DNA of 64,000 bases from Lachnospiraceae bacterium (lineage in GTDB: Bacteria; Bacillota; Clostridia; Lachnospirales; Lachnospiraceae): NCBI GenBank assembly GCA_045639565.1, contig JAZUDH010000092.1:29466-93465 (forward strand), given 5' to 3'. Both the position numbers and the translations under genes were made by a program. The notes beneath the pieces were generated by a model that worked only from the letters and a program-made list of their open reading frames with translations, was not told the origin of the DNA and made no database searches. How positions within the stretch are numbered: the stretch's first letter is position 1; every line of letters begins with the position of its first letter. Shown here piece by piece: positions 1,444 through 50,325 of this stretch.

Positions 1444-1611
1444 TTATTCAGAGATAGCGCCTACAGGACACTGTGAAGCACATGATCCACATGAGATGCA
1501 TGTATTTTCATCGATTTCGAAATGAGCGTCGCCTGCAGAAATAGCGCCTACTGGACACTGTGATTCGCATGAACCACATGAAACACAACTATCAGAAATT
1601 TTAAATGCCAT
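1444..1611 (-). CDS. fdx: 2x[4Fe-4S] clostridial-type ferredoxin (55 aa). It is below the ORF-track length cut-off.
   Basis: My hand translation of the minus strand is MAFKISDSCVSCGSCESQCPVGAISAGDAHFEIDENTCISCGSCASQCPVGAISE*. It has two CxxCxxCxxxCP motifs and a GGAGGA RBS 8 nt upstream of the ATG at 1611. Confidence 0.85.
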   Translation of the reverse strand: MAFKISDSCVSCGSCESQCPVGAISAGDAHFEIDENTCISCGSCASQCPVGAISE

Positions 1612-1691: not shown

Positions 1692-2456
1692 TTATTTCTC
1701 AATCAATCCTAGTTCGATTCTTCGATCCCTAATACCTTGGATGATGACCTTTTTCTTTTCGATAACAGTTCCCTTATCCATAGCAGGAGTATCTCCTAAT
1801 GGATATTCGATACCTAATTTTTCGTATTTAACTTTTCCCATAGTATGATATGGAAGAACATCAAGGGCTTTCAAATTCGTAAACTGCCCGATAAAGTATC
1901 CTAGTTTATAAAGATATTCATCATCATCGGTGACTCCAGGCACGATAACGTGCCTTATCCACATATCTACTTTTTTCTCGTTAAGATATGCACAGAAAGC
2001 AAGGATGTTTTCGTTGTGCTGCTTAGTAAGTTCTAAATGCTTATCGGGATCGATGTGCTTTATATCGAGCATAACTAAATCAGTAAGGGTCATAAGCGTA
2101 TCGAATTTATTTAATAAATCCGCATTATTAGGATTGAATGCTATACCAGATGAATCAATACAGGTATGAATGCCCTTTGCTTTGGCTTTAGTAAATAACT
2201 CAATCAAAAAATCAATCTGCATTAAGGGTTCGCCGCCAGTAACTGTAATTCCGCCATCTCTATAAAATCCCTTATTTCGCTCGTACTGTTCGATGATATA
2301 GTCTGTATCCATTAACTGACCTGCATTCATTTCCCAGGTATCTGGATTATGACAATATTTACATCTCATAGGACAACCCTGTACGAATACAACGTATCTT
2401 ACTCCGGGGCCGTCTACAGTACCAAAACTTTCTAATGAATGAATTTTTCCCTGCAT
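1692..2456 (-). CDS. pflA: Pyruvate formate-lyase activating enzyme (radical SAM glycyl-radical activase)
   Basis: 254 aa. Starts 'GKIHSLESFGTVDGPGVRYVVFVQGCPMRCKYCHNPDTW' with the CX3CX2C radical-SAM motif. Lies next to the PFL genes. Confidence 0.93.
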   Translation of the reverse strand: MQGKIHSLESFGTVDGPGVRYVVFVQGCPMRCKYCHNPDTWEMNAGQLMDTDYIIEQYERNKGFYRDGGITVTGGEPLMQIDFLIELFTKAKAKGIHTCIDSSGIAFNPNNADLLNKFDTLMTLTDLVMLDIKHIDPDKHLELTKQHNENILAFCAYLNEKKVDMWIRHVIVPGVTDDDEYLYKLGYFIGQFTNLKALDVLPYHTMGKVKYEKLGIEYPLGDTPAMDKGTVIEKKKVIIQGIRDRRIELGLIEK

Positions 2457-2471
2457 GTTTATACCGTCTTT

Positions 2472-2510
2472 CTAAAAAAATAAGGGGTTCGGAAATCTCC
2501 GAACCCCTTC
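2472..2510 (-). terminator. Intrinsic terminator downstream of the glycyl-radical-domain gene and upstream of pflA
   Basis: On the minus strand: aaggggttcgg-agattt-ccgaacccctt followed by a T7 run. Confidence 0.7.
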
Positions 2511-2528: not shown

Positions 2529-2771
2529 TTAGAAATTATCGTGGAATGTACGAGAGATTACGTCTGCCTGCTGTTCAGGTGTTAACTTAATGAAGTTAAC
2601 TGCGTAACCAGATACACGAATTGTTAACTGAGGATAGTTTTCAGGATGCTGCTGAGCATCAAGAAGAGTCTCTCTATTAAGAACGTTAACGTTAAGGTGA
2701 TGTCCACCCTTTGTTACATAACCATCAAGTAATGAAACAAGGTTTTCAACCTGCTGTGTATTAGCTGCCAT
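2529..2771 (-). CDS. Free-standing glycyl-radical domain protein (GrcA/YfiD-like), equivalent to the C-terminal domain of PFL
   Basis: 80 aa. '[67 protein letters not shown]' carries the RVSGYAV glycyl-radical fingerprint. Has its own AGGAGG RBS 8 nt upstream of the ATG. Confidence 0.9.
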
Positions 2772-2795
2772 TGTTTATTTCCTCCTGCTTACTAT

Positions 2796-2999
2796 TTATT
2801 CGTAATCGTCTAGCCCTTGATGTAATGTCGGAACACTACATGCTAAAGGAGTTCTAGAACAGTCGGTGCAACCCATGGTTTGCACTGACTTAGCAGCTTT
2901 AGCATTAGCATCGAAATCTACGTTTACATGGCCAACACCTCTTGCTACATCGGCATCTAGCATTTTTACAAGATCTTCAATCATACTTTGCTCATTCAT
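2796..2999 (-). CDS. Small three-cysteine peptide (67 aa) encoded between the PFL core and the glycyl-radical domain gene
   Basis: MNEQSMIEDLVKMLDADVARGVGHVNVDFDANAKAAKSVQTMGCTDCSRTPLACSVPTLHQGLDDYE. GGAGG lies 8 nt upstream of the ATG at 2999; the track's upstream ATG at 3014 overlaps that RBS. The N-terminal 23 residues align with the glycyl-radical domain N-terminus at 10/23 identities by hand. Confidence 0.55.
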   Translation of the reverse strand: MNEQSMIEDLVKMLDADVARGVGHVNVDFDANAKAAKSVQTMGCTDCSRTPLACSVPTLHQGLDDYE

Positions 3000-3023
3000 G
3001 GGTCTCACCTCCATAGTAAATAA

Positions 3024-5063
3024 TTATTTGCTTAAATCGAGATCGATATCGCCTGCAAATACCTTATCTTCTTTACCAAGTGCTCCAGGGATAATTGTGA
3101 AGGTATTTGAGATACCATCCTGTGAATCCATGAAAGGAAGCTTAGCAACTGAAGAAAGTGATGCAACAGCACCGTGTGTATCACGCTGGTGCATAGGGTT
3201 AGCACCAGGAGCGAAAGGCTGTCCCTTTCTACGTCCATCAGGTGTGTTACCTGTAGCCTTACCATATGTAACGTTTGAAGTAATTGTAAGAACTGACATT
3301 GTAGGGAATCCATCTCTGTATGTATGATGTCTTCTGATCATTGTCATGAACTTATGTACTAATTCTGTAGCGATTGAGTCTACGCGATCATCATCGTTAC
3401 CATACTTAGGGAAGTCACCTGTTGTTTCGAAGTCTGTGATGATACCATCTTCGTCACGAATAACTTTAACCTTAGCATACTTGATAGCTGAAAGTGAGTC
3501 AGCAACAACTGAAAGACCAGCCATACCTGTAGCGAAGTATCTACGAACATCTCTGTCGTGGAGAGCCATCTGAGCTCTTTCATAACAATACTTGTCATGC
3601 ATGTAGTGGATAACGTTAAGTGTATTTACATAAACGTCAGCTAACCATTCCATCATGTCTGTGTACTTAGCCATTACATCATCATAATCAAGGTATTCAC
3701 CTTCAACAGGACGATACTTAGGTCCTACCTGCTTCTTTGTAACTTCATCAACACCACCGTTGAGAGCGTAAAGAAGACACTTAGCAAGGTTAGCACGTGC
3801 TCCGAAGAACTGCATTTCCTTACCGATTCTCATTGAAGATACACAGCATGCGATGCCGTAATCATCACCATGAGTTACACGCATAAGGTCGTCGTTTTCG
3901 TACTGGATAGAAGATGACTGGATAGACATCTTAGCACAGAACTTCTTGAAGTTTTCAGGAAGTCTTGTTGACCATAATACTGTTAAGTTAGGTTCAGGAG
4001 ATGAGCCTAAGTTTGTAAGTGTATGTAAGTAACGGAAAGACATCTTTGTTACCATGTGACGTCCATCAACACCAACACCACCGATTGATTCTGTTACCCA
4101 TACAGGGTCACCAGCGAAAATCTGGTTGTATTCAGGTGTACGAGCAAACTTAACGCAACGAAGCTTCATGATGAAGTGATCAACAAATTCCTGGATTTCT
4201 TCTTCTGTAAATGTTCCGTTAGCTAAGTCTCTTTCAGCGAAGCAGTCGATGAATGTAGATGTACGTCCAAGTGACATAGCAGCACCATTCTGTTCCTTAA
4301 CTGCTGATAAGTAACCAAAGTATGTAGCCTGGATAGCTTCCTTAACGTTAGAAGCGGGCTTAGAAATATCGCAGCCGTATGATGCAGCCATCTGCTTCAT
4401 CTGCTTTAATGCTACGATCTGTTCAGAAATTTCTTCACGAAGACGAATAACATCATCTGTCATGATACGTCCTGTAGAATCCTTCTGAGCAAGCTTGTCT
4501 TCGATAAGACGATCAATACCGTAAAGAGCGATACGTCTGTAGTCACCGATGATACGTCCACGTCCGTAAGCATCAGGAAGACCTGTGATAACGTGAGATG
4601 AACGACATGCTCTCATTTCATCGTTGTAAGCATCGAAACATCCAGCGTTGTGTGTTTTTCTGTGTGTTGAGAAGAACTCGCTGATTTCAGGATCAACTGT
4701 GTAACCATTATCAGCACAAGCCTTTTCTGCCATACGGATACCACCGTAAGGCTGCATTGAACGCTTGAAAGGCTTATCTGTCTGGAAACCTACGATAGTT
4801 TCCTTGCTCTTATCAAGGTATCCTGGTCCGTGAGAAACGATAGTAGAAACAACCTTAGTGTCCATATCAAGAACGCCGCCTGCTTCTCTTTCCTTCTTAG
4901 CGAGATCAAGAACCATGTTCCATAAATCTTTAGTGTTCTGTGTGGGAGCTGCGAGGAATGTATCATCTCCATCATAAGGATGATAGTTCTTCTGGATGAA
5001 ATCACGTACGTTGATTTCATTTTCCCACTTGCCGCCTACAAAATCTTTCCATTCTGGTCTCAT
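3024..5063 (-). CDS. pflB: Formate C-acetyltransferase (pyruvate formate-lyase) catalytic core, lacking the C-terminal glycyl-radical domain
   Basis: 679 aa from '[13 protein letters not shown]', with AGGAGG 9 nt upstream. Contains the catalytic Cys pair '[13 protein letters not shown]'. It ends '...[23 protein letters not shown]', before any RVSGYAV motif. Confidence 0.93.
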
Positions 5064-5330
5064 TTTGAAATGCCTCCTGTGAGTATAATTAAATTGTGAA
5101 TGATGAAAAATCATCGAATCATTAAAATTGTATACATTACTTCTAATGCAAGGTTATTATAGTCTATCCATAAAACCTCGTCAAGAAAACGTAATGTTCT
5201 TTTTTACGTACAAAGTGCTGAAAATGGGGGATTTTAGAAAGTTTTAATGATTGATGCACTGGGTACTTGGTTGAAAAAGAGAAGCTTTGGTATTATACTA
5301 CAGATGTCAAAGAATGAAAGGAGTAAAAAC

Positions 5331-5528
5331 ATGAGTGCAATTAGTAAAGAAATGACTATTGGTGAGATCTTAAGAGTAGCTCCTGAAGCAGCACCTTTAC
5401 TTATGCAGGCTGGTATGCACTGCTTAGGTTGTCCGTCAGCTCAGGCTGAATCATTAGAAGAAGCTGCAATGGTTCACGGTATTGATATCGATGAATTAAT
5501 GGATTATTTTTCTAAGAACTTAAAATAA
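5331..5528 (+). CDS. DUF1858 / hybrid-cluster-protein-associated redox disulfide-type small protein
   Basis: 65 aa from the internal ATG, with RBS aaaggag. '[49 protein letters not shown]' contains the CxxC motif typical of this family. Confidence 0.75.
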
Positions 5529-46892: not shown

Positions 46893-46898
46893 CACAAT

Positions 46899-47150
46899 AA
46901 TAACTATGACGAAGACAGTAACTTACATGCGTAAGGTTTCAGAGAGTCGGGGATGGTGCGATCCCGATACTGGCATTTAAGTGAATATCACTTCTGAGTT
47001 GCAGCCTGAAAGATATCGAGTAGGCGCTGACGGAGTCCCACCGTTACAGGGGAGGTGTATGAACGTACAAGGGAGTACTCTTAAAAAGGTGGTTAAAAGC
47101 GAGCATATTTTATAGGCTTCGTCCTTTTTAGGACGGAGCCTTTTGTTTTA
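46899..47150 (+). promoter_or_regulatory. T-box leader (tRNA-Ile sensing) with terminator
   Basis: Stem I elements 'cAGAGAGtcggggatGGTGCGAtccc'. A candidate specifier AUC followed by A in 'gaatATCAc'. A T-box-like 'aaaGGTGGTtaaaagcg'. The terminator aggcttcgtcc-ttttt-aggacggagcct plus a T-run lies directly before ileS. Confidence 0.7.
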
Positions 47151-47172: not shown

Positions 47173-50100
47173 ATGTACAAGCAGGTACAGACAAGCATGA
47201 ACTTTGTAGAGCGTGAAAAAGAAACTCTTAAGTTCTGGAACGAAAACAATATTTTTGAAAAGAGTATGGAAAACCGCAAGGAAGGTCCTACATACACATT
47301 TTATGATGGCCCTCCTACCGCTAATGGTAAGCCTCATATCGGTCACGTTTTAACCAGAGTAATAAAGGATATGATTCCTAGATACCGTACAATGAAGGGA
47401 TACATGGTTCCTAGAAAAGCAGGTTGGGATACTCATGGACTTCCCGTTGAGCTTGAAGTTGAAAAGCTTTTAGGCTTAAACGGTAAAGAGCAGATTGAAG
47501 AATATGGTATGGAGCCTTTCATTGAAAAATGTAAGGAATCCGTATGGAAATATAAAGGCATGTGGGAGGATTTCTCAGGAACAGTAGGTTTCTGGGCTGA
47601 TATGAATGATCCTTATGTTACATACCATGATGATTATATTGAATCTGAATGGTGGGCATTAAAGGAAATTTGGAACAAGAACTTATTATATAAGGGCTTT
47701 AAGATTGTTCCTTACTGTCCTCGTTGTGGAACTCCTCTTTCTACAGCAGAAGTTTCACAAGGCTATAAGACTGTAAAAGAACGTTCAGCTGTTGTTAGAT
47801 TTAAGTGCGTAGGTGAGGATGCATATTTCCTTGCATGGACAACTACACCCTGGACATTACCTTCTAACGTAGCTCTTTGTGTAAACCCTGATGAGACATA
47901 CGTAAAGGTTAAGGCAGCAGATGGCTATACCTACTATATGGCTGAAGCACTTCTTGATTCAGTACTTGGAAAGCTCAAGACAGAAGATACAGCAGCATAT
48001 GAAATATTAGAAACATACAAAGGTAAGGATCTTGAATACAGAGAGTATGAACCTTTATATGCATGCGCTGCAGAAGTAGCTAAAAAACAGAATAAGAAAG
48101 GACATTTTGTAACATGTGATTCATATGTAACTATGTCAGATGGTACTGGTATTGTACATATTGCGCCTGCATTTGGTGAAGACGATGCTAATGTAGGACG
48201 TAAATATGATCTTCCTTTCGTTCAGTTTGTAAATGGTAAGGGTGAACTTACAGAAGAAACACCTTATGCTGGATTATTTGTAAAGAAGGCTGACCCTGAA
48301 GTATTAAAGGATCTTGATGCTGAAGGCAAGTTATTCGATGCACCTAAGTTTGAACATGAATATCCTCACTGCTGGAGATGCGATACTCCACTTATTTACT
48401 ACGCAAGAGAGTCATGGTACATCAAGGAAACAGCAGTAAGAGATGATTTAATTAGAAACAACAACACAGTTAACTGGATTCCTGAATCAATTGGTAAGGG
48501 AAGATTTGGTAACTGGCTTGAAAATATCCAGGACTGGGCTATTTCACGTAACCGTTATTGGGGTACTCCTCTTAATATCTGGGAATGTGAATGCGGTCAC
48601 CAGGAATGTATCGGTAGCCGTGCAGAATTAAAGGAAAGAAGCGGAATGGATAAGGCTGATACAGTTGAACTCCACCGTCCTTATATCGATGAAGTAACTA
48701 TGAAGTGTCCTGACTGTGGCGGCACTATGAAGAGAGTACCAGAAGTTCTTGACTGCTGGTTTGACTCTGGAGCAATGCCATTTGCTCAGCATCACTACCC
48801 ATTCGAAAATAAGGAATTATTCGAATCACAGTTCCCTGCACAGTTTATATCTGAAGCAGTTGACCAGACTCGTGGATGGTTCCACTCTCTTATGGCTGAA
48901 TCAACCTTGCTATTTAACAAGGCTCCTTATGAAAACGTAATCGTACTTGGTCACGTTCAGGATGAGCATGGACAGAAGATGAGTAAGTCTAAGGGAAATG
49001 CAGTTGATCCATTTGACGCACTTGAAAAGTACGGTGCTGATGCTATCAGATGGTATTTCTATATCAACTCAGCTCCTTGGCTTCCTAACAGATTCCATGG
49101 CGACGCAGTTGTTGAAGGCCAAAGAAAATTTATGGGTACATTATGGAACACATATGCATTCTTCGTACTCTATGCTAATATTGATGATTTTGATGCAACA
49201 AAGTACACACTTGAATATGATAAGCTCCCTGTAATGGATAAGTGGCTGTTATCAAAGCTTAACACAATGGTTAAGGATGTAGATACAAACCTTGAAAACT
49301 ACAGAATTCCTGAAGCCGGTCGTGCTCTTGATGAATTTGTTGATGAAATGAGTAACTGGTATGTACGTCGCTCTCGTGAAAGATTCTGGGCCAAGGGAAT
49401 GGAGCAAGACAAAATTAATGCTTACATGACTCTTTACACAGCACTTGTAACAGTAGCTAAAGCGGCAGCTCCTATGATTCCTTTCATGGCTGATGATATT
49501 TATCGTAACCTTGTATGCTCAATCAATGATAAAGAGCCTATAAGCGTACATTTATGTGACTTCCCTGTATGCAACGATGCTTTAGTTGATGCAGAGCTTG
49601 AAAAGAACATGGATGCAGTATTAAAGACTGTTGTAATGGGACGTGCAGCTAGAAATACTTCTAATATCAAGAACCGTCAGCCTATCGCTAAGATGTTTGT
49701 TAAGGCACCATTTGAACTTAGTGATTTCTACAAGGAAATCATCGAAGAAGAGCTAAATGTTAAGGACGTTGTATTTACTGATGATGTCAGAGAGTTTACA
49801 TCTTACACATTTAAGCCTCAGCTTCGTACTGTAGGTCCTAAATATGGTAAGCAGTTAGGCGGTATCCAGAAGTATTTAGCTTCTGTTGACGGAAACGCTG
49901 CAATGGACGTATTAAAGGATAAAGGAGTTCTTTCTTTTGACGTAGACGGAACAACAGTTGAACTTAAGGAAGAAGATTTACTTATAAATATTGCTCAGAA
50001 AGAAGGCTATGTAACAGAAGCCGACAACGTTGAAACAGTAGTACTTGACACAAACCTTACAGACGAATTGATTGAGGAAGGCTTTGTCTATGAAGTTATT

Positions 50101-50325
50101 TCTAAGATTCAGACTATGCGTAAGGATTCTGGATTCGAAGTAATGGATCATATCAAGGTAGTTGTTGTAGGCAACGAAAAAATAGCAAATGTAGTATTAA
50201 AGAATAAAGATGCAATTGCAACTAAGGTATTAGCAGATAGCATCGAAGATAACGGTTCTCTTGCTAATATGAGAGAATGGAACGTTAATAGTGAAAATGT
50301 TACAATCGGAGTTGAAAAAATTTAA
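47173..50325 (+). CDS. ileS: Isoleucine--tRNA ligase, type 2 (long, eukaryote-like form)
   Basis: 1050 aa, with 'PTANGKPHIGHVLTR' (HIGH) and 'KMSKSKGN' (KMSKS). The length and C-terminal extension are typical of type-2 IleRS. Confidence 0.97.
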   Translation: MYKQVQTSMNFVEREKETLKFWNENNIFEKSMENRKEGPTYTFYDGPPTANGKPHIGHVLTRVIKDMIPRYRTMKGYMVPRKAGWDTHGLPVELEVEKLLGLNGKEQIEEYGMEPFIEKCKESVWKYKGMWEDFSGTVGFWADMNDPYVTYHDDYIESEWWALKEIWNKNLLYKGFKIVPYCPRCGTPLSTAEVSQGYKTVKERSAVVRFKCVGEDAYFLAWTTTPWTLPSNVALCVNPDETYVKVKAADGYTYYMAEALLDSVLGKLKTEDTAAYEILETYKGKDLEYREYEPLYACAAEVAKKQNKKGHFVTCDSYVTMSDGTGIVHIAPAFGEDDANVGRKYDLPFVQFVNGKGELTEETPYAGLFVKKADPEVLKDLDAEGKLFDAPKFEHEYPHCWRCDTPLIYYARESWYIKETAVRDDLIRNNNTVNWIPESIGKGRFGNWLENIQDWAISRNRYWGTPLNIWECECGHQECIGSRAELKERSGMDKADTVELHRPYIDEVTMKCPDCGGTMKRVPEVLDCWFDSGAMPFAQHHYPFENKELFESQFPAQFISEAVDQTRGWFHSLMAESTLLFNKAPYENVIVLGHVQDEHGQKMSKSKGNAVDPFDALEKYGADAIRWYFYINSAPWLPNRFHGDAVVEGQRKFMGTLWNTYAFFVLYANIDDFDATKYTLEYDKLPVMDKWLLSKLNTMVKDVDTNLENYRIPEAGRALDEFVDEMSNWYVRRSRERFWAKGMEQDKINAYMTLYTALVTVAKAAAPMIPFMADDIYRNLVCSINDKEPISVHLCDFPVCNDALVDAELEKNMDAVLKTVVMGRAARNTSNIKNRQPIAKMFVKAPFELSDFYKEIIEEELNVKDVVFTDDVREFTSYTFKPQLRTVGPKYGKQLGGIQKYLASVDGNAAMDVLKDKGVLSFDVDGTTVELKEEDLLINIAQKEGYVTEADNVETVVLDTNLTDELIEEGFVYEVISKIQTMRKDSGFEVMDHIKVVVVGNEKIANVVLKNKDAIATKVLADSIEDNGSLANMREWNVNSENVTIGVEKI

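Follow-up and report, generated by a model that had tools for sequence, protein, structure and literature searches.

Why should a split pyruvate formate-lyase (PFL) carry, between the gene of its catalytic core and the gene of its detached glycyl-radical domain, a third gene that encodes a protein of 67 amino acids (aa)? PFL is a central enzyme of many gut anaerobes, where it turns pyruvate into formate and acetyl-CoA. This arrangement occurs in the genome of a Lachnospiraceae bacterium (assembly GCA_045639565.1, contig JAZUDH010000092.1), in a stretch of 64,000 nucleotides (nt) at forward-strand positions 29,466-93,465, which was analysed as a whole and is called the window below. This locus is best explained by a PFL that is naturally split into three pieces: the core, GrcA3 (the separate radical domain) and, as a dedicated third component, the 67-aa protein (the peptide). 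The features of the window that bear on this explanation are as follows.

2796..2999, minus strand: gene of the 67-aa small protein, identified as an open reading frame (ORF) with its translation, from the ATG (2999..2997) to the TAA stop (2798..2796)
3008..3012, minus strand: GGAGG ribosome-binding site, 8 nt before the ATG at 2999
2907..2993, minus strand: N-module (residues 3-31), an amphipathic helix plus a GxGH-V-N-V strand, paralogous by alignment to GrcA3 residues 4-32
2883..2906, minus strand: variable linker (residues 32-39), with a ratio of nonsynonymous to synonymous substitution (dN/dS) of 0.52
2808..2882, minus strand: C-module (residues 40-64), V-Q-T-M-G-C-T-D-C-S-R-T-P-L-A-C-S-V-P-T-L-H-Q-G-L-D
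3024..5063, minus strand: PFL core (Pfam PFL-like), 679 aa when started at MRPEW, as in its 679-aa homologues; the longest ORF starts at 5114
2529..2771, minus strand: GrcA3, 80 aa, the separate glycyl-radical domain with RVSGY (NF038360, 158.2 bits against a cutoff of 158; PF01228, E=5.5e-24)

The existence of a 67-aa ORF behind a GGAGG site, between the core and the glycyl-radical protein, had been proposed from the letters of the DNA without database searches (the sequence-only reading), and it holds, the translation being exact and the ribosome-binding site lying 8 nt upstream. An alternative ORF of 72 aa would start at an ATG that falls within this ribosome-binding site, and the 67-aa product is taken as the correct one because the homologues have 67 aa. 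A Shine-Dalgarno-like core is found upstream of the peptide gene in 60 of 76 distinct homologous loci. In the window, the ORFs of core, peptide and GrcA3 share one reading frame (2529-5114), with three in-frame stops between them; since this frame relation is lost in the related locus L001, the shared frame is probably due to chance and not to read-through. Tryptic peptides of the 67-aa protein include SVQTMGCTDCSR and TPLACSVPTLHQGLDDYE.

The point at which the enzyme is divided can be located from both flanking genes. Indeed, barrel strand beta10, Gly loop and C-terminal helix are all missing from the core, which finishes with an acidic tail; it matches the Gly_radical model at profile positions 1-51 of 106 only and TIGR01255 at positions 2-665 of 744, and the 80-aa protein, whose homologues are named GrcA3 by NCBI, aligns to residues 683-757 of Escherichia coli PFL. 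PFL is thus split just before the helix that precedes beta10.

The peptide gene is under strong purifying selection. A dN/dS below 1 had been set beforehand as a test, and over 83 distinct gene copies, in which synonymous sites are saturated (pS 0.77, pN 0.16), the ratio is 0.11 for the whole peptide; by region, the N-module has 0.13, the linker 0.52 and the C-module 0.027, as against 0.057 for the PFL core and 0.082 for GrcA3. The C-module is therefore the most constrained piece of the operon.

The N-module is related to the neighbouring radical domain, as the sequence-only reading had claimed. A pairwise BLASTP alignment of the peptide with GrcA3 is ungapped, with 10 identities over 22 positions (E=7e-6), and the comparison of the family profile (305 members) with the GrcA3 profile by hhalign gives a probability of 95.9% and E=6e-9, with peptide residues 3-31 facing GrcA3 residues 4-32. 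Individually, 73 of 85 diverse family members match the GrcA3 hidden Markov model (HMM), albeit weakly (best E=1.5e-6). At the DNA level, 41 of 69 aligned bases are identical, while other in-frame offsets give a mean of 19.5 (standard deviation 3.8). In terms of the E. coli enzyme, peptide residues 8-18 correspond to PFL 683-693 (helix) and residues 19-29 to PFL 699-709 (beta10); the hydrophobic face and the G-x-x-H-x-N-V signature of the GrcA3 anchor are kept, and the strand of the peptide alone aligns to YfiD 68-79 (E=0.022). These alignments show the peptide to be paralogous to the first part of the glycyl-radical domain, namely its amphipathic helix and the beta10 strand (PFL 683-709). Beyond residue 31, no part of the peptide aligns with GrcA3, the core tail or YfiD. 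The earlier idea of a duplicated docking element fused to a new Cys-rich tail agrees with both results, the homology of the N-module being significant and that of the tail to Gly loop, core tail or YfiD undetectable; as judged from the alignments, a flexible linker and a very strongly constrained two-Cys motif stand where the radical domain has its Gly loop and C-terminal helix. A tandem-duplication junction, with the C-terminal CSVPTLHQGLDD copying the last strand of the core, was also considered and rejected (hhalign against the last 100 core residues, E=0.52).

In 85 diverse family members, the near-invariant residues are L14, D15, G21, G23 and H24 in the first module and C47, A53, C54, P57 and T58 in the second, and the tail follows the family motif [DE]C-x(4-7)-[LM]AC-x-VPT[LI]-x-x-G[LI]D. 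The protein had been described as a three-cysteine peptide with a G-C-x-x-C...C tail. This description is accurate in the window, where C44, C47 and C54 are present; family-wide, however, near-invariance is limited to C47 and C54, just two Cys are present in 44 of 271 members, and G43 and C44 (the G-C of the proposed pattern) are missing from most distant members. Since G43 and C44 are unconserved, neither a glycine radical site nor a CxxC metal site is a property of the family, and a second glycyl-radical site is unlikely. The C47-C54 spacing is 6 in 239 of 271 sequences and ranges from 2 to 9, the GxGHxNx motif stands 10-44 residues from the equivalent of C54 in the 305-sequence set, and individual homologues have much longer linker inserts or acidic C-terminal extensions. 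An AlphaFold2 model of the peptide alone predicts a helix at residues 3-19 (predicted local distance difference test 83-88) and low-confidence coil for the rest (overall 73, tail 56-64), so that no fold of the peptide on its own is predicted, in line with a protein that acquires its structure on a partner. One divergent member (P0160, L095 107-298) lacks both conserved Cys: GCTDISKNKFPGMAPTLL. Its gene adjoins that of a class-2 fructose-1,6-bisphosphatase on a contig of only 1.2 kb, and it may be a degenerate or relocated copy.

The family is large. Homologues form 1764 clusters in the protein database; the best 120 of these are 72-100% identical to the peptide and almost all 66-67 aa long, and the named ones are "hypothetical protein" entries of Lachnospiraceae. 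An exhaustive HMM search yields 213 clusters at 50% identity, nearly all of them stand-alone proteins of 60-90 aa, and at least 584 encoding stretches were recovered in a scan of one genome per species. The genera named are Acetatifactor (including A. muris DSM 23669), Roseburia, Kineothrix, Blautia and Robinsoniella, and homologues of the core include Lacrimispora saccharolytica; in viral contigs, no relative of the peptide was found. Apparent fusions, namely "core" matches of 805 aa and 821 aa and "peptide" matches of 1035 aa and 534 aa, were discarded as assembly duplications or unrelated repeat proteins. Two peptide loci on separate contigs are present in each of two Lachnospiraceae bins, JAZQOL01 (L011, L012) and JAGBMJ01 (L067, L076), so some genomes may hold two split-PFL operons.

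The linkage of the three genes is conserved throughout. Core, peptide and GrcA genes occur together in every one of the 87 loci in which the peptide was found, wherever the available DNA suffices, with intergenic gaps of 19-161 nt and 14-219 nt; conversely, six loci reached independently through the core protein all contain the 67-aa gene (6/6). All 49 complete cores are 677-680 aa long, hence always truncated and in no case an intact PFL. The linkage is kept in four distant lineages, whose peptides are 35-48% identical and whose cores are 75-76% identical, and gene overlaps of 4-8 nt occur in two of their loci (L089 and L093). A position between the PFL halves, as described in the sequence-only reading, is found in the window but is not essential: in L091 (3697-4192), from a distant lineage, the core gene is followed by those of GrcA (77 aa) and the peptide (63 aa) and then by the activase gene pflA, and the peptide has only two Cys (ENCKGNMACQIPTL). 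Because the linkage survives this change of gene order, the peptide gene is not a mere gap filler. From selection, homology and linkage together, the 67-aa protein is very probably a functional partner of the split PFL.

All split cores also share a conserved tail in which hydrophobic and acidic residues alternate, [FVI]-x-G-[DE]-[LI]-[ED]-[VLI]-[DE]-L, observed in the window (3024-3071, minus strand, the last 16 codons) and in L089, L091, L093 and L006. In L089 it reads VSGDLEVELELDE, and it is missing at that position in the intact E. coli PFL. Its pattern resembles that of an amphipathic beta-strand, and the peptide or GrcA3 could dock on it.

The remainder of the operon in the window comprises the following features.

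5156..5184, minus strand: promoter-like site TTGACG-17-TATAAT upstream of the core, with 11/12 matches (a consensus match only)
2482..2509, minus strand: strong terminator-like hairpin of the intrinsic type, with a 12-bp stem and a T run, directly 3' of GrcA3
1692..2456, minus strand: PflA, the PFL-activating radical S-adenosylmethionine (SAM) enzyme (TIGR02493, 284 bits, equivalog-level)
1444..1611, minus strand: 55-aa ferredoxin with 2x[4Fe-4S] (NF058577, 86.9 bits), directly 3' of pflA

The promoter-like site and the hairpin after GrcA3 would imply a core-peptide-GrcA3 transcript. PflA is conserved downstream in all loci examined, and the 55-aa ferredoxin, which stands in the matching position in L001-L006 and L096-L101, is the likely physiological reductant (electron donor) of PflA. 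The conserved neighbours are the ferredoxin, DnaB, MecA and DUF1858, and PflA is the sole radical-SAM enzyme among them. A 65-aa TIGR03980 redox disulfide protein (DUF1858, hybrid cluster protein-associated) with the motif HCLGCP is encoded at 5331-5528 (plus strand), divergently from the core, and is also present in L001-L004 and L096-L101; a redox link between this protein and the PFL operon is possible. No Rfam match was obtained in the locus. Elsewhere in the window, a T-box leader (RF00230, 95.9 bits) is predicted at 46897-47129 (plus strand), upstream of a 1050-aa ORF (47173-50325).

No known family accounts for the 67-aa protein, as had been suspected. Neither Pfam nor NCBIfam has a family that covers it, its profile gave chance matches only when run against all Protein Data Bank (PDB) sequences (E ~1), and no description of it was found in the literature on GrcA3, GrcA2, split or truncated PFL and Lachnospiraceae GrcA. 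In a review of glycyl radical enzymes from June 2026, small subunits are given for HPAD, BSS and MASS only and for PFL none; the review describes spare-part proteins for formate lyases only and does not mention a split PFL or a third protein (PMC13450708). The closest relatives are GrcA, YfiD and GrcA3 (PF01228, TIGR04365, NF008341, NF038360), which are also small stand-alone derivatives of the radical domain encoded in pfl operons and have a beta10-type strand, GxxH-x-N-V (GGxHLNVNV); the preceding helix is common with GrcA3. However, GrcA and GrcA3 have R-V-x-G-[FWY] in a Gly loop, whereas the peptide has neither this motif nor the Gly loop nor the C-terminal helix, and it cannot carry the radical because it has no glycyl-radical motif. 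Its score with the GrcA3 model NF038360 is 14.9-15.1 bits against a cutoff of 158, and Pfam returns no match.

Two further comparisons are informative. In oxygen-cleaved E. coli PFL (cPFL), residues 696-733 likewise provide a second copy of beta10 beside the strand of the spare part, but they are a covalently attached leftover of damage spanning beta10, helix and half of the Gly loop (Andorfer et al. 2021, PMC8683613), whereas the peptide is a gene product made of the preceding helix, beta10 and an unrelated Cys tail. The small subunits of other glycyl radical enzymes (BSS beta and gamma, HPAD gamma, MASS beta, gamma and delta) resemble the peptide in their size of ~60-90 aa, their Cys residues and a gene beside that of the catalytic subunit, and they are proposed to modulate radical-domain dynamics or to protect the radical. 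Nevertheless, they are HiPIP-like or rubredoxin-like proteins that bind Fe-S or Fe through four ligands (4 Cys, or 3 Cys + His) and show no relationship to the radical domain, whereas the peptide, with only C47 and C54 near-invariant, has two conserved Cys and no compact predicted fold and is homologous to the radical domain. Functionally, the peptide would be closest to an accessory subunit that arose from the radical domain; it is widespread and unannotated.

How such a subunit might act is suggested by what is known of the E. coli system. YfiD 61-127 is folded like PFL 693-759, with its first strand in the place of beta10, and this strand is proposed to remain fixed as the Gly loop flips out to the PFL-activating enzyme (PMC8683613). 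The truncated protein PFL(1-695) together with YfiD reaches wild-type activity once activated, yet binding and activation are poor; the extra beta10 copy (cPFL 696-733) serves as a "recognition element" and favours the binding of YfiD, and cleaved PFL is protease-sensitive (PMC8683613). Moreover, full-length PflB-G734A is rescued in vivo by GrcA (PMC12338860), so radical-domain modules can exchange on the core. Since beta10, in PFL and in YfiD, is the part that remains held in the core barrel when the Gly loop moves out to the activase, the N-module is proposed to be a core anchor. The peptide would thus copy the part of GrcA3 that holds the core and not the part that visits PflA, followed by a tether and then the Cys motif, and this points to a core-anchored, glycine-less mimic of the radical domain, a placeholder or gatekeeper for GrcA3 (rough probability 0.4). 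According to this proposal, the N-module would hold the peptide to the core devoid of its radical domain, in the beta10 slot or next to it, the linker would stand where GrcA3 has its surface helix, and the Cys motif would occupy or guard the Gly-finger cavity beside the catalytic Cys-Cys loop, whose Cys pair is C406/C407 by the numbering of the 679-aa core. The peptide may thereby complete and protect the unloaded, nine-stranded core and control the timing of GrcA3 engagement or exchange.

Several points weigh against a placeholder of this kind. The contacts between peptide and core are inferred from sequence and from the analogy with E. coli; the N-module and the N-terminus of GrcA3 do not co-vary within genomes (permutation p=0.11); and when the family is compared with the whole core, the sole local match, peptide residues 51-62 against the catalytic Cys loop, is non-significant (E=0.45). 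The tail has no likeness to the Gly loop by hhalign, and to call it a "finger" is for this reason a topological guess. Furthermore, if the peptide and GrcA3 compete for one slot, their near-equimolar expression from an operon would seem wasteful.

Of the roles put forward by the sequence-only reading, a competitor or regulator at the docking site and a thiol protector or quencher both agree with the anatomy and may apply. As an alternative to the placeholder, the peptide could be an assembly adaptor or bivalent clamp that helps GrcA3 to bind the core and to be activated by PflA, one module holding the core and the other GrcA3 or PflA, as a counterpart of cPFL 696-733. Removing the duplicate beta10 segment in E. 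coli abolishes measurable YfiD binding and lowers activation (PMC8683613), and the peptide carries such a beta10 duplicate. Its two conserved modules on a variable tether, the lack in GrcA3 of the 60-residue N-terminal region that YfiD needs for binding, and a translational coupling with core and GrcA that suggests a stoichiometric complex all agree with this role. But the E. coli element also comprises a helix and half of the Gly loop (710-733), which are missing from the peptide, and a binding site on GrcA3 or PflA is hypothetical; the adaptor is thus retained as a tentative, rather unlikely reading. More doubtful is a thiol quencher or redox switch that docks like GrcA3 and whose C47 and C54 would reduce the glycyl or thiyl radical (deactivation before oxygen arrives), cap the catalytic Cys, or sense redox state through a disulfide or a metal. 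It is consistent with near-invariant Cys in the most constrained motif of the operon (dN/dS 0.027), with a Cys-Cys spacing varying from 4 to 9, as expected for a loop closed by two Cys, with the non-significant best core match of the tail being the catalytic Cys loop, and with the TIGR03980 redox-disulfide-domain protein as a conserved divergent neighbour; protective reduction of the radical has also been proposed, without evidence, for HPAD gamma (PMC13450708). This switch is nonetheless pure conjecture: two Cys are too few for the [4Fe-4S] site of the known small subunits, H60 and C44 are unconserved in distant members, and enzyme-independent deactivation is not established for PFL. An extension of the mimic in the same direction, itself improbable, would be a radical-dead on/off device that swaps with GrcA3: its invariant Cys pair would lie against the catalytic Cys-Cys loop and, under oxidising conditions, either quench or park the radical or cap the active-site thiols; at anoxia the site would be freed for freshly activated GrcA3.

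The two remaining explanations go back in part to the sequence-only reading, and neither has fared well. One is that the peptide is a substrate of PflA or of another radical-SAM enzyme, either resembling a ribosomally synthesized and post-translationally modified peptide (RiPP) or serving as a second radical carrier, and reached through a recognition element borrowed from GrcA3. The gene does adjoin pflA and the tail is rich in Cys, Thr and Ser; 3 of 85 members match a Cys-rich radical-SAM RiPP model at E ~0.01 and one matches lachnocin (E=0.036), but these matches are at noise level. G43, the sole candidate mimic of G734, and C44 are unconserved, no RVxG[FWY]-type motif is present, and beta10 is the core anchor, not the part that binds PflA (PMC8683613). 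In addition, RiPP precursors have a SPASM maturase and usually a protease or exporter nearby, and no SPASM maturase, protease or exporter occurs in the conserved neighbourhood of the peptide gene. Such a substrate is accordingly disfavoured and very unlikely. The other is a non-functional, decaying duplication remnant or a spurious intergenic ORF, for which the short length, the absence of an annotated family and the partial likeness to the neighbour could be adduced. A dN/dS of 0.11 overall and 0.027 in the tail with saturated synonymous sites, the conserved length across the 1764 clusters (213 at 50% identity), the occurrence in more than 500 species genomes, the conserved ribosome-binding site and the linkage kept despite a change of gene order refute this explanation.

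In summary, a large block of Lachnospiraceae, including Acetatifactor, Roseburia, Blautia, Kineothrix, Lacrimispora and others, builds its PFL from three genes, and the piece hitherto left as an unannotated "hypothetical protein" has a C-terminal module more constrained than the enzyme itself. This bears on how a detached radical domain finds the PFL core, binds it and is activated on it, and on why a duplicate of beta10 helps. A truncated core, a separate radical domain and a separate duplicate strand constitute a natural genetic system for these questions, and possibly an aid to the design of oxygen-repairable glycyl radical enzymes. If the on/off device were true, the three-piece PFL would be a purpose-built, cheaply repairable and switchable enzyme of strict gut anaerobes.

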